From assembly GCA_964461965.1 (NCBI GenBank), contig CAYWWD010000010.1, positions 18-64,017 on the forward strand: DNA of 64,000 nucleotides, written 5' to 3'. Under the pieces are notes generated by a model. The model did not search any database and was not told the DNA's origin. It worked only from the letters and a program-made list of their open reading frames with translations. Within the stretch, counting starts at the first letter, position 1, and each line of letters opens with the position of its first letter. Made by a program: the position numbers and the translations under genes. This DNA comes from an uncultured Halioglobus sp. (GTDB taxonomy: Bacteria; Pseudomonadota; Gammaproteobacteria; Pseudomonadales; Halieaceae). This document shows positions 47,798 through 58,162 of this stretch, in pieces.

Positions 47798-48820
47798 ATG
47801 GCCAATCGACCGCGAAGTAAAAGCACGCTCGCATGCGCCGCTGGATGCGCATCGGCAGTTCTGGCAACCACCCTGTTGCTCTCTCCACCTGCTTCCGCCT
47901 GTTACGTCTACGGCAAGGGCTGGGGCAGCAAATGGGACAACCCGGTCTGGCCGAACGGTGCCACTATTACATGGAGTTATATGACACCCGGTGTCGGTTT
48001 GGGCCCGTCCGCGCCGCCGGCCTGGAGCGGCACCAACTCGCTGGGCTCGGGCGCCGCCAATGATATCCGGGTCAAGATCGACGCTGTGCACGGCGCCGGC
48101 GCCTTCAACGCCGCGGTGCAGCGCGCCTTCAACAAATGGGCTGCGGCCGCCAACATCACCTTCGTGAATGTCGCGGACCAGGGTGGTGATTTCGGCACGG
48201 TGACGGCTCCGGATATCCGTATCGGCGCGTTCAGTTTCGGTGCGGGAGACTACTCGGGCGCTGCCGGCTTCGGCCCACCGGGTGACGACATCAACTTCCC
48301 CGACGCACTCTCGGGGGATATCGCCTTCAACAGCCTGAATAATTTCAATATCGACCCCGGCGTGGAAGGCGCGCCGCTGCAGACAGGTCCGGGCGGACTG
48401 TACCTGAATGACATCGAGGGCCTGCTGATCCATGAGATCGGGCACACCCTGGGCATAGGCCATTCGGAGAGCGCAAGCGCGATACTCTGTGGGTACCAGT
48501 CACCGCTCTTCAACGGCTCGGTGTGCGACTACACGCATGTGCATCGCATTCTGGCGGTGGACGATCTGACTGCAATCAAGAATATCTATGGCCCCGCACC
48601 GCCACCGGACGGCGATGTGTCGTTCGATTGCCGGGTGGACTCAGCGGATGTGCTGCTCGCCAACCGGATTGTGCTCTACACACTGCAGCCAAATGCGGCG
48701 CAGACCACGCGGGCGGATGTTGCCCCGCTGGTGGGTGGTGTACCCGTCCCGAACGGCCAGGTAACCACCGCCGACGTGCTCGCCATCCTGCAGAAGAGCC
48801 TGAAGCAGATCAGCTTCTAG
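47798..48820 (+). CDS. Secreted matrixin (M10-like) zinc metalloprotease with C-terminal dockerin-like domain
   Basis: Signal peptide ending ASA; HEIGHTLGIGH (HExxHxxGxxH); C-terminal GDVSFDCRVDSADVLL..RADVAPLVGGVPVPNGQVTTADVLAILQK duplicated EF-hand-like repeat. Confidence 0.8.
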   Translation: MANRPRSKSTLACAAGCASAVLATTLLLSPPASACYVYGKGWGSKWDNPVWPNGATITWSYMTPGVGLGPSAPPAWSGTNSLGSGAANDIRVKIDAVHGAGAFNAAVQRAFNKWAAAANITFVNVADQGGDFGTVTAPDIRIGAFSFGAGDYSGAAGFGPPGDDINFPDALSGDIAFNSLNNFNIDPGVEGAPLQTGPGGLYLNDIEGLLIHEIGHTLGIGHSESASAILCGYQSPLFNGSVCDYTHVHRILAVDDLTAIKNIYGPAPPPDGDVSFDCRVDSADVLLANRIVLYTLQPNAAQTTRADVAPLVGGVPVPNGQVTTADVLAILQKSLKQISF

Positions 48821-48857
48821 GATTTGTCCGCGAGCTTCCCGGGCGCGATGCCCTTGA

Positions 48858-49838
48858 TTACAAGTCCACCGCGTGCACCAGTACCGGATAGATACTGCCC
48901 ATCGTGTACCCATTGAGATCGATGTAGTAGCTCTTCATGGTATTGATGCTGAACTTGGTCTTGGCCTGCGTCGGCGTGCCGTCGGAAAAATAATTCATAC
49001 GGACCGTCAAATCCGAGAGCCGGGATGAGTTGGGCGTGGCGGTCGCCAGCGTCTTGAAGCCGGCAGGATTGACCAGCGTGACATAAATCGTGCCGCTGCC
49101 GTCGCCATCCGGAACGATGTTGTAATTGGTCTGCACATACGGATTGTGATCCGAGGGCACCACCACGGGCATCACACCGTTCTTGAAAAACGAATCGTCG
49201 CTGTATTCGATCGCCAGGAATGCTCCGCCTACATTGTTCACGCCGGCGAGGCTATTGGGACGAACGACAAAACTGTTGGGCGTGTTGATATAGCCGACGA
49301 ACTGCCGGACAAAATCGACATCCTGGAGCGACGAACCTGCAATGATCTGGATCGGAATTGCATTGAGATTGCCCTCGATGGCGTTGGCAGTATTGGTCAA
49401 TTTGGGCGAGGTGACCGAGATGGTCGCCGCACCCACGGCCAGGGGTAGCGGCGAATTGTACTGGCCGGGATAGGTCAGTGGTGCCACGACAACCCAGCCG
49501 CCGTCGTACGGCACCATGCCGGTGAGCCCTACCAATGCATTGGTACCGTCGAAGCTGTAGGTGTTCACCTGCGCGGTGTAGTCGACATAGGACTTGTACA
49601 CATAGCGCGGTTCGAGCACGAACTGCTGGTTGTTGAAGTCGGTCAACGTGATCGTCAGGTCGCTGGGTTTGAGCGCTGCCGTGCCACCGGCATTGCGAAT
49701 CGCGCCACCGAGACCGATGACGATGTGATCCCCGGCCCGCGCATACCCCGGTGTGGTTTTGGTTTGTACACACCCCGACAGCCACGCCGCGGCGATCACC
49801 ATCAGGAGTATTTTCATCACGAAGATATTGGTATTCAT
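48858..49838 (-). CDS. Hypothetical lipoprotein, beta-rich (possible C-terminal cohesin-like domain)
   Basis: GGAG RBS 6 nt before ATG 49838; lipobox LSGC; all-beta composition rich in T/N/V/G. Confidence 0.65.
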   Translation of the reverse strand: MNTNIFVMKILLMVIAAAWLSGCVQTKTTPGYARAGDHIVIGLGGAIRNAGGTAALKPSDLTITLTDFNNQQFVLEPRYVYKSYVDYTAQVNTYSFDGTNALVGLTGMVPYDGGWVVVAPLTYPGQYNSPLPLAVGAATISVTSPKLTNTANAIEGNLNAIPIQIIAGSSLQDVDFVRQFVGYINTPNSFVVRPNSLAGVNNVGGAFLAIEYSDDSFFKNGVMPVVVPSDHNPYVQTNYNIVPDGDGSGTIYVTLVNPAGFKTLATATPNSSRLSDLTVRMNYFSDGTPTQAKTKFSINTMKSYYIDLNGYTMGSIYPVLVHAVDL

Positions 49839-54717: not shown

Positions 54718-55116
54718 ATAGAGGGCGAACAGCCGCATCCGTACCCGGCAAGTGACAGGTTTTTTTACAGTCCGCGCATCCGCTCACTTGGTGCAATTCA
54801 GATACTTCCCTGTAAATCAATAAGATACGGGGAAAAGGTATAAATATTGCGTACTTTCATAAACGTTCGTTTAAGACGGGACGGGAATGCGGCAGTTGCA
54901 GGCAGGTCAATTTCCAAGCCAGCGTGCGATGCGTCCGGCCCTGTACAGCGTAAAGCTATTGCTCGCTATATTTTTTTGGCCGGTAGCTGTTTGCGGTTTG
55001 ACGACTGTGCTAGCCTGCCGCTTCCTGCAGCTTAAACGAACGCTTATAACAACACGCCTGGTCCGCCGCAGGTATGGCGCCATGTGCGACTGGCAGATCA
55101 GCCGAGGAATCTTCCC

Positions 55117-58086
55117 ATGCTATACAACCGATCAACTCTTCGTTCACGCTTTAACCTGACAAGCGCCTTATTTACCTGCCTGACAGCACTGGCGGGCATA
55201 GCGGGCGTCGCCCTGCCAGCGCACGCGCAGCGCACCTTCGTCGAGTTTGAAAGCGGTCCCGTCCGGCCGGTTGCACTGACGCCGGACGGTAACACGCTGC
55301 TGGCAGTCAATACGCCCGACAATCGCCTGGAAGTGTTCTCGGTGCAGGATGGCAAGCTGACGGCAACGGATTCCATCCCGGTGGGCATGGAGCCGGTATC
55401 AGTCGCCGCGCGTAGCAACAGTGAAGTCTGGGTGGTCAACCATCTGTCGGACAGCGTGAGCATCATCGACCTTTCCGCGACGCCGGCGAAAGTCGTGCGC
55501 ACGCTGCTGGTGGGCGACGAACCGCGCGATATCGTGTTCGCCGGTACCGGCTTCAACCGCGCGTTCATCACCACTGCGCATCGCGGACAGCAGCGTTCAG
55601 ATCCTTCGATTGCCGCGGTACCCGGCGCCGGCGGGCCGCAATTGACCACCGAGGGTATTGGCCGCGCGGACGTGTGGGTCTTCGATGGCAACAACCTCGG
55701 TACCACTCTCGGCGGCACGCCGCTGCGGATTATGAGCTTCTTTGCCGATACCCCGCGCGGCCTGGCCGTGACACCCGACGGCGGTACGGTGTACGTCGCG
55801 GCCTTCCAGTCGGGCAACCAGACCACCGTCATCAATGAAGTGCAGGTGCCCAACGGTTTCGGTGCCAACGGCGCTTTCGGACCGGCCAACAACTGCTGGC
55901 AAAACGATGCCGACCCGGCCTGCGAACAAAGCGTCGCCGCGCCAGAAGTGGGGGTAATCGCGAAATTCAACGGCACCAACTGGGTTGACCAGCAAGGCAC
56001 CAACTGGAACAGCCAGGTGAAATTCAGCCTGCCGGACCGCGATGTTTTCGCTGTTAATGCCAACACCCTGGCGCCAGGCGCCGTCTACACCAGCGTCGGC
56101 ACCATCCTCTTCAATATGGCGGTGAACCCGGTCACCGGCAAGGTGTATGTCACCAACACCGAACTGCCGAACCACATCAACTTTGAAGGGCCCGGCATCT
56201 TCGGCGGCAGCACTGTGCAGGGCCACCTCTCCGAGTCGCGCATCACCGTCCTCAACCCCGTCGGCGCGACCAAGGACGTGCAGCACCTGAACCAGCACAT
56301 CGATTACAGCCAGCGCCACACCAACCCTGGCGCCGATCACGCGGCGATCAACGCGCAGGCGGCCCACAGCCTGGCGACGCCATTGCAGCCGGTGGTTTCG
56401 GCCGACGGCACCAAACTGTATGTGGCAGCATTTGGTTCGGGCAAGATCGGCGTATTCGATGTTGCGGACATTGAAGATCCGAACTTCGAAAGCAATTTTG
56501 ACCCCACCACGGAAAGCGCCAACTACATCGCCGTGGGCGGTGGCCCCGCCGGCATGGTGCTGGATGAGTCGGACGAGTTGAACAAACGTCTCTACGTACT
56601 CACCCGGTTCGGCAACCAGATCGAGGTTGTCGACCTGAACACCAATGCCGTGGTGGAAACACACGCCATGCACAACCCGGAACCGCCCGAGGTCGTGCAG
56701 GGTCGCCCCTTCCTGTACGATGCGCTCGCGACGTCGGCCAACGGCGAAACGTCCTGCTCGAGCTGCCATATCTTTGGCGACATGGACCAGCTCGCCTGGA
56801 ACCTGGGCAATCCGGACGACCGCACCTCCACCAGCAACCAGCCACAGGCCACCATTCTCGCCGGCCAGGGCACCCTGCACCCGATGAAAGGTCCCATGAC
56901 TACGCAGACCCTGCGCGGCATGGCGACGCACGGCGGTCTGCACTGGCGCGGTGACCGCGTCGACGGCTTCTTCGGCACCGATCCCTGCGCAGAACCCACA
57001 GGTGCGGCCTGCTCCGAAGACCTGTCGTTCCGCAACTTCATCGTCGCCTTTGAGGGACTGGTCGGCAAGGAGGGCACCATCACCCCGGCTGAAATGCAGC
57101 AGTTTACGGATTTCGCGCTGCAGATCATGCTCCCACCCAACCCGATCCGCCCGCTGAACAATACGCTGTCCGGTCTGGTCACTCCGGGCTTGCCCAACAG
57201 TGCCACCAACCCCAGCGCACAGCTGGGGCTGGCACGGTTCAACGGCGCCGCCACTGACACCGTGGCCAACTGCAACGGCTGCCACACGCTGGACCCCGCG
57301 AATGGTTTCTTCGGTACGGGTGGCGACCAGAGCTTCGAGGGTGAAACCCAGCACTTCAAGGTTGCGCACATGCGCAACGACTACCACAAGGTGGGCATGT
57401 TCGGCTCTTCCACCCAGAGTACGAACACCGGCGAGCAGATTCGCGGTTTCGGCATCCTGCATGACGGTTCGATCGACACGGTACGCAACTTCCTGACGGC
57501 AAGCGTGTTCACGCTCAACACGACGGATGAGGCCAATCTGGAGGCTTTCACCTTTGAGTTCCCCTCGGATCTTGCGCCCATCGTCGGCCAACAGATCACA
57601 CTCACCGCCACCAACGGCGCCGTCACCAATCCGCGCATCGATCTGTTGATCCAGCGCGCGAATGCCAACTTCACCTCGCTGATGATGGGCGGCACTGTGA
57701 AGGAATGCGATCTGATCGTGAAGGGATCGGTCGACGGGGTGGAGCGCGGCGCCGTGCGCGAGGCCAGCGGGCAGTTCCGCACGGACAAGAACGAGCTCTT
57801 CTCCGACACCACCATACGCTCGCTCGCGACCTCCCAGGGGCCCCTGACGTACACCTGTGCTCCTCCCGGCTCAGGCGTCCGTATGGGCATCGACCGGGAT
57901 CTGGACGCGGACCTCGATGGCCTGGACAACTGCCCGGCCGCCGCCAACGCCGATCAGGTGGACGACGACAACGATGGCGTGGGCTCAGCCTGCGACAACT
58001 GTCCGTTGATCCCGAACCCTGACCAGCTGGATTCCAACAGCGATGGCAGGGGCGATCTCTGCCAGGACCTGCCGCCGGGCTGCTGA
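55117..58086 (+). CDS. Secreted YVTN/YncE-type beta-propeller + diheme c-type cytochrome + TSP3-repeat protein ending LPPGC
   Basis: Signal ending AHA; propeller repeats ([29 protein letters not shown]); CSSCH and CNGCH heme motifs; DNCP..NADQ.D.D.DGVGSAC TSP3 repeats. Confidence 0.85.
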
Positions 58087-58162
58087 CACCCGGCTTCCGG
58101 GAAACCGCGCCCCGTTCTAGAATTGGGGCGCGTATTCCCGCTCACTACACGCGAGTCCTGCC

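Follow-up and report, generated by a model that had tools for sequence, protein, structure and literature searches.

A lipoprotein family encoded beside dockerin-bearing exoproteins in Halieaceae as a candidate non-cohesin dockerin receptor

Within a 64,000-nucleotide stretch of DNA from an uncultured Halioglobus sp. (assembly GCA_964461965.1, contig CAYWWD010000010.1, positions 18 to 64,017 of the forward strand; the whole stretch is called the window below), two convergent genes encode a secreted M10 (matrixin) metalloprotease with a C-terminal dockerin (47798-48820, plus strand; 340 residues, P0001, assigned from its translation and Pfam match) and a lipoprotein of an unnamed family (48858-49838, minus strand; 326 residues, P0002). 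A first-pass annotation of the sequence had taken these genes for a dockerin and a cohesin-like receptor that would tether the protease to the cell surface. Comparison across genomes revealed that the immediate neighbour of a lipoprotein gene of this family carries a dockerin in 30 of 31 evaluable loci, the most distant relatives included, and searches at the level of sequence and structure detected no cohesin in the lipoprotein. From these comparisons, the family is probably a dockerin receptor and envelope anchor, that is, an analogue of cohesins and not a detectable homologue. We also lean toward a more specific form of this proposal, in which two-domain beta-sandwich lipoproteins would be a non-cohesin receptor for type I-like dockerins and would hold one tagged exoenzyme per receptor on the outer membrane.

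Dockerin genes as neighbours of the lipoprotein gene

The loci examined comprised 23 from reference genomes, together with those of distant homologues and those from five further Halieaceae genomes; L021 and L026, which are interrupted by contig ends, were left out of the tally. Conservation of the gene neighbourhood, proposed in the first-pass annotation as a check, was borne out, and it extended over at least a dozen architectures of the dockerin-bearing protein. The neighbour is an M10 matrixin in the window, L004, L005, L013, and L014, an M6 (InhA-like) peptidase with TSP3 repeats in L006, L007, L008, L010, and L012, a 1764-residue S8 subtilase in L009, an S53 sedolisin in L033, an LVIVD beta-propeller in L016, and a beta-helix protein in L045. 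The dockerin is N-terminal in a di-haem oxidoreductase (DHOR) with an F5/8C domain (L023) and in a GH16 glycosidase (L024). Other neighbours are unknown proteins of 275 and 442 residues (L011 and L035), an unknown protein of about 470 residues (L015, L017, L018, L020, L022, and L025), and giant proteins of 1171 to 2963 residues (L037 to L040). At L047 the product of the neighbouring gene has its dockerin immediately after an initial signal peptide, and at L036 the upstream neighbour is interrupted by the contig end, its final 24 residues being a dockerin helix. The M6 pair of L010 is found in the Halioglobus japonicus BC5_1 assembly and the GH16 pair of L024 in Litorirhabdus singularis IMCC14734.

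Gene order in the 30 loci was lipoprotein first in 13, partner first in 12, convergent in 4, and divergent in 1, and the dockerin stood at the N or the C terminus of the partner depending on the locus. Because both gene order and dockerin end vary, no fixed DNA arrangement accounts for the association. No substrate class unites the partners, and nothing but the dockerin is shared by all 30 neighbours; recognition of the dockerin by the lipoprotein is the most economical explanation. The functional link between the two genes that was suggested at the outset is therefore supported by recurrent adjacency as a link to the dockerin module, not to the protease.

The partners of about 470 residues form a secreted, uncharacterised family with TSP3 repeats. 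Both segments of their dockerins start with Cys (CDVD... and CDL[DN]...), which suggests a variant whose two calcium loops are stapled together by a disulfide.

Within the 4.2-Mb genome that contains the window, a hidden Markov model (HMM) of the dockerin module had exactly one strong match, the matrixin tail, and the lipoprotein HMM matched a single family member; these two matches adjoin each other. Outside the window, a 929-residue open reading frame (ORF) with TSP3-like repeats (contig C4:83588-86374, minus strand) has a weak Pfam dockerin match (E value of 0.07) near its C terminus; it was unmatched by the custom module HMM, and there is no lipoprotein-family gene nearby.

Among 101 evenly drawn Halieaceae genomes, the dockerin module was present in 6, the lipoprotein in 7, and both in 5 (Fisher p 1.6e-6), and the chance that a neighbouring gene bears such a module was about 1e-4. 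All intact lipoprotein copies in this set (one each in G000, G011, G029, and G086 and two in G084) adjoin a dockerin gene, the dockerin of G086 being of the canonical DxNxDG type and falling below the threshold of the module search. Two further genomes hold only fragments of the lipoprotein gene, which look like decayed copies, one of them with an in-frame TAG (G068, L044, at G068:C4:100903-101259; G095, L041, at G095:C2:276342-276584). The remaining dockerin-like matches in G068 lie in short ORFs elsewhere in that genome. The two copies in G084, a single Halioglobus genome, are divergent in sequence (G084:C1, L037 and L038, at about 284 kb and 3.92 Mb), and each adjoins its own giant gene, a 2363-residue ORF with a C-terminal dockerin in one case and a 2963-residue ORF with an N-terminal dockerin in the other. 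The arrangement hints at paralogous pairs that differ in specificity.

Close relatives have the entire neighbourhood of the pair in common, so that synteny by itself would be uninformative. Mapped onto a maximum-likelihood tree of 28 lipoproteins, partner type required 13 changes against a minimum of 12, while shuffled partner types required a mean of 19.5 changes and none of 200 shuffles was as low as 13. Since partner type follows the lipoprotein tree, the pair is inherited as a unit, although sister lipoprotein clades carry different enzymes (M10 versus M6). A mirror-tree test for a lipoprotein domain that co-varies with the dockerin was also tried and did not discriminate between the domains (r 0.19). 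An empty-site comparison used G046 and G010, which belong to the same genus and lack the pair. Both have the orthologue of the FAD enzyme followed by a BVMO paralogue, with the ADH flank elsewhere, and no clean empty site for the pair could be shown in either.

Matrixins that lack the dockerin served as a negative control. At 49 to 66% identity to the window protein, such homologues had no lipoprotein neighbour in three of three loci (P0128, P0116, and P0136; 297 to 311 residues), and neither a lipoprotein nor a dockerin occurred anywhere in these loci. Four of five short matrixins examined (P0115, P0116, P0120, and P0128; loci L050 and L051) end instead in PEP-CTERM or VPLPA-CTERM tags; P0136 had no match to either tag. 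These four are 62 to 65% identical to the window matrixin over 73 to 77% of its length. P0120 passes the Pfam PEP-CTERM cut-off (23.1 versus 20.7 bits), and P0128 and P0116 score 22 bits against TIGR03370, under its cut-off of 25.35. Because these sister matrixins end in PEP-CTERM-type tags, the dockerin occupies the place of a known cell-surface sorting signal, and one protease family carries what are, by prediction, alternative anchoring devices.

The dockerin-tailed matrixin

The protease was described at first reading as M10-like, and it fits the matrixins (M10, PF00413) in both family match and active site. P0001 matches Pfam Peptidase_M10 with 45.7 bits (E value of 8.4e-12; cut-off of 24 bits), and its catalytic domain, delimited by Pfam and motif reading (residues 103-265; 48104-48592, plus strand), contains the zinc motif HEIGHTLGIGH (residues 212-222; 48431-48463), in agreement with the matrixin HExxHxxGxxH site. 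Export is predicted from a Sec signal peptide read by eye (residues 1-34; 47798-47899, plus strand), where cleavage after ASA would leave CYVYG as the mature N terminus. The methionine of the Met-turn is replaced by Leu230 (48485-48487), in the context LCGY where most homologues have MCGY; Leu also occurs at this position in several other members of the matrixin family. The Cys that follows the Met-turn position and the Cys of a downstream GS.CD motif are kept in most of the close homologues sampled. In all, 88 homologues of the protease were found, for the most part in Halioglobus.

The dockerin module makes up the last 69 residues of the protease (272-340; 48611-48817, plus strand) and was delimited by alignment of the tails and by a profile search against PDB dockerins. 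A type I dockerin is built of two segments in tandem, each about 22 residues long and made up of a 12-residue EF-hand-like calcium loop and the helix after it; acidic or amide residues occupy loop positions 1, 3, 5, 9, and 12. The tail has this type I (PF00404) architecture of two calcium-loop and helix segments, arranged as GDVSFDCRVDSAD-helix, linker, ADVAPLVGGVPVPNGQVTTAD-helix. By alignment, segment 1 begins with the calcium loop DVSFDCRVDSAD (48614-48649, plus strand), with residues D-V-S-F-D-C-R-V-D-S-A-D, and segment 2 with the loop DVAPLVGGVPVPNGQVTTAD (48716-48775, plus strand), in which an 8-residue insert separates DVAP from NGQVTTAD. A total of 31 homologous tails share the pattern GD[VI][SN]FDCx[VI][DN]xxD-helix, linker, ADVAPLxxGxPxP[DN]Gx[VI]xxxD-helix, and the insert of about 8 residues in the second loop is found across them.

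As a single sequence, P0001 falls under the Pfam Dockerin_1 cut-off (15.3 versus 22.9 bits; E value of 0.023). A profile built from an alignment of 20 modules from the matrixin family and other partner proteins (A3) matched solved type I dockerins in the PDB over their full length, the best being 2ccl_B (E value of 3.9e-12) and 1ohz_B (E value of 4.2e-11), both from Xyn10B dockerin-cohesin complexes (2CCL and 1OHZ), and it matched more than 20 further dockerin chains. The assignment to type I is thus made by the profile, with the single sequence below the Pfam cut-off. Because the profile matches solved type I dockerins over the whole length, we regard the prediction that the matrixin tail is a real dockerin as sound, and the duplicated dockerin-type repeat noticed at first reading is upheld.

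The lipoprotein and its relation to cohesins

The two convergent stop codons are separated by 37 bp (48821-48857), as first noted. This spacer was searched for a terminator-like hairpin and none was found, and the idea of a bidirectional terminator in the gap was dropped. The lipoprotein precursor starts with a signal peptide ending in a lipobox (MKILLMVIAAAWLSGC; pattern [LVI][ASTVI][GAS]C), the mark of a bacterial lipoprotein processed by Lgt and LspA. As in the first description, the lipobox reads LSGC (residues 20-23; 49770-49781, minus strand), with Cys23 as the lipidated residue. All 51 aligned homologues retain the lipobox, with Cys23 unchanged throughout, and the distant representatives inspected have a lipobox too. 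By the rule established in Escherichia coli, Val at position +2 of the lipidated Cys is no inner-membrane retention signal; this residue is Val in P0002, from which we infer a location at the outer membrane.

The lower GC content of the lipoprotein gene that had been remarked upon was confirmed (0.564, versus 0.627 for the protease gene) and gives no sign of transfer. GC content at third codon positions is equal in the two genes (0.749 versus 0.748), so that the gap reflects amino acid composition, and a foreign origin of the lipoprotein gene was rejected.

When 1.84 billion representative proteins were searched by profile, 233 clusters (at 50% identity) were recovered with E values of ≤0.001, mostly in marine Gammaproteobacteria of the Halieaceae. 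For both proteins, homologues are chiefly from Halioglobus and other Halieaceae, in accord with the initial attribution of the pair to a gammaproteobacterium. Nearly all full-length matches among the 150 best representatives span 300 to 350 residues, the shorter ones being partial profile matches, and the lengths and matched ranges in these 150 gave no sign of a Rosetta-stone fusion of the lipoprotein domain with a dockerin or cohesin. P0002 had no Pfam or NCBIfam family match. The UniRef name DUF4382 attached to one homologue (P0054) was not reproduced by a Pfam scan of 51 members, and neither the lipoprotein family nor a dockerin partner other than a cohesin was found described in the literature that was searched.

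An AlphaFold2 model of the whole protein, built from the 51-sequence alignment, has a mean predicted local distance difference test (pLDDT) score of 90.1 and a predicted template modelling (TM) score of 0.80 and consists of two beta-sandwich domains. The N-terminal domain (residues 29-171; 49326-49754, minus strand; pLDDT of 90 in the AlphaFold2 model) starts about 6 to 8 residues past the lipidated Cys. The C-terminal domain (155 residues, 172-326; 48861-49325, minus strand) was also modelled alone, with a pLDDT of 92.6. An internal duplication was considered and discarded, as hhalign detected no relation between the two domains (probability of 0.5%).

The C-terminal part had been likened to a cohesin from its strand pattern, with a recommendation to compare it with cohesins by profile and by Foldseek. 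The beta-sandwich is well predicted; the likeness to cohesins failed in every search. P0002 had no match to Pfam Cohesin (PF00963), one of 51 family members matched that family at a chance-level E value of 0.034, and the family profile had zero matches among PDB sequences. Comparison by hhalign with six bona fide cohesins of other Halieaceae (A5) returned probabilities of 0.1 to 0.2% (0.15% for the whole protein and 0.1% for the N- and C-terminal domains each). Foldseek searches of the PDB with the whole model gave weak matches to tandem Ig proteins (filamin and Fabs; best E value of 4e-4, TM score of <0.2) and no cohesin in the top 50. The C-terminal domain had no match at an E value of ≤0.001 and no cohesin in the top 50; its best match was CelQ at an E value of 0.05, a CBM3b stood at rank 26, and its weak structural matches are to carbohydrate-binding modules and lectins. 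In neither of these two models was the nine-stranded cohesin jelly-roll recovered. With Pfam and NCBIfam, the PDB-sequence profile, hhalign, and Foldseek all negative, membership of the cohesin family is not supported. Nothing singled out the C-terminal domain, on which the first-pass annotation had placed its emphasis. The N-terminal domain is the better conserved of the two in distant relatives, which often match this domain only (HMM positions of about 3 to 152), and on this comparison it is the conserved core of the family.

Proposed role, alternatives, and known systems

We propose that the two convergent genes would act as one functional module. The protease would be exported through its Sec signal peptide with the calcium-loop dockerin at its C terminus, and the lipobox would send the two-domain beta-sandwich lipoprotein to the outer membrane. 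Members of the lipoprotein family would be dedicated partners of dockerin-tagged exoproteins, and binding of the dockerin, presumably calcium-dependent, would hold the enzyme on the cell envelope, a role like that of the single-cohesin anchoring proteins of cellulosome producers performed by a protein with no detectable relation to cohesins.

Several observations weigh against this proposal. The lipoprotein gene of L019 has no dockerin neighbour, and the divergence of dockerins and lipoproteins is weakly correlated (Mantel r of 0.19), with no domain standing out. Because Pfam, hhalign, and Foldseek all found no cohesin similarity, the analogy with cohesins rests on gene context. The lipoprotein could also face the periplasm. 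Canonical cohesins occur in 9 of the 101 Halieaceae genomes, and in one of these, Candidatus Litorirhabdus singularis (G011), they coexist with the same dockerin subtypes; of the eight dockerin genes in this genome, a single one adjoins the lipoprotein gene. Where cohesins exist, such dockerins may bind ordinary cohesins. G011 also has a 1513-residue scaffoldin-like ORF with at least two canonical cohesins, followed by a 260-residue ORF with one cohesin and a dockerin (L043, G011:C14:592000-600900), apparently a genuine cohesin-dockerin system of the non-cellulosomal kind in an isolate of the Halieaceae.

An alternative that we consider unlikely is that the lipoprotein is tied to dockerin proteins without tethering them, as a helper in folding, export, or maturation or as a control on release. 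The same adjacency evidence would fit, as it shows linkage and not mode of action. The short distance between the lipidated Cys and the N-terminal domain, which keeps that domain close to the membrane, and the weak co-divergence of dockerin and lipoprotein are also compatible with such a helper. Two features argue for a tether instead: a two-domain beta-sandwich lipoprotein has no translocon or ATP-dependent chaperone features, and the replacement of the dockerin by PEP-CTERM-type tags on the same protease points to a role in anchoring or sorting.

It is less probable still that the dockerin has some other target, whether a canonical cohesin, a different protein, or a polysaccharide, and that the lipoprotein acts independently as a surface-binding or adhesin module whose gene travels with those of exoenzymes. 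The coexistence of dockerins and cohesins in G011 would suit this explanation, as would the resemblance of the C-terminal domain to carbohydrate-binding modules and lectins. However, a whole-genome search found no Pfam cohesin in the genome containing the window, none was found in G086, the partners have only the dockerin and no substrate class in common, and matrixins without a dockerin lack the lipoprotein neighbour.

A true but extremely diverged cohesin is very improbable as an identity for the lipoprotein. Both of its domains are beta-sandwiches of cohesin size (about 140 to 155 residues and about nine strands), the weak C-terminal Foldseek matches include CBM3-containing cellulosomal proteins (CelQ and the CBM3b mentioned above), and one family member had the chance-level Pfam Cohesin match; against this stand the missing Pfam match for P0002, the hhalign probabilities, the empty PDB-sequence profile search, and the lack of cohesins in the Foldseek top 50. 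That the two genes are unrelated neighbours by chance, as their convergent arrangement without an operon and the neighbourhood shared by close relatives might allow, is hardly credible and is effectively refuted by adjacency in nearly all loci over varied partners, orientations, and lineages against the background of about 1e-4.

The proposed receptor role has a known counterpart in OlpA and OlpC of Clostridium thermocellum, anchoring proteins with a single cohesin whose partners are type I dockerins. As in those systems, an enzyme-borne duplicated calcium-loop dockerin is found with a separate, nearby-encoded, envelope-anchored beta-sandwich protein, and the proposed outcome is an enzyme held on the cell. 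Unlike OlpA and OlpC, the putative receptor has no detectable cohesin sequence or fold, it is anchored in a Gram-negative envelope by an N-terminal lipid and not by an SLH domain or sortase, and its cargo is proteases and assorted other enzymes, one per receptor, with no scaffoldin. The PEP-CTERM/exosortase system (and VPLPA-CTERM) resembles the dockerin in the C-terminal position of the tag on homologous matrixins, and both devices would keep a secreted protein with the cell. Exosortase processes PEP-CTERM, a transmembrane sorting signal, whereas the dockerin folds into a calcium-binding module and depends on a receptor protein.

Dockerin-mediated anchoring and non-cellulosomal dockerins in Proteobacteria are already known. 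To our knowledge, dockerins occur in many bacteria without cohesins, and their binding partners there are an open question. Peer et al. reportedly surveyed non-cellulosomal cohesin and dockerin modules in FEMS Microbiol Lett in 2009. Dockerin-like and cohesin-like ORFs have been noted in Saccharophagus degradans (PMC2386152). The modules described here are likewise dockerins on noncellulolytic proteins in Proteobacteria, where partners are mostly unknown; they differ in having a specific, recurrent, non-cohesin neighbour as a candidate partner. What is offered is a compact pair, a 326-residue lipoprotein and a 69-residue dockerin, that recurs with many enzymes. If the proposal is true, "orphan" proteobacterial dockerins would gain a partner, the dockerin plug would prove to have been paired with a second, unrelated socket, and a new receptor fold would be defined for a docking module in wide use. 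It would also explain how some marine particle-associated Gammaproteobacteria keep costly exoenzymes, such as proteases and glucanases, at the cell so that they are not lost to seawater, and it would provide a second, orthogonal plug-and-socket pair for Gram-negative surface display.

At L019, the gene divergently upstream of the lipoprotein gene encodes a 1013-residue TSP3-repeat protein that ends in ...EGPPGC (L019:2333-5371, minus strand). A protein encoded at 55117-58086 of the window (compare 55053-58100) also ends in Gly-Cys.

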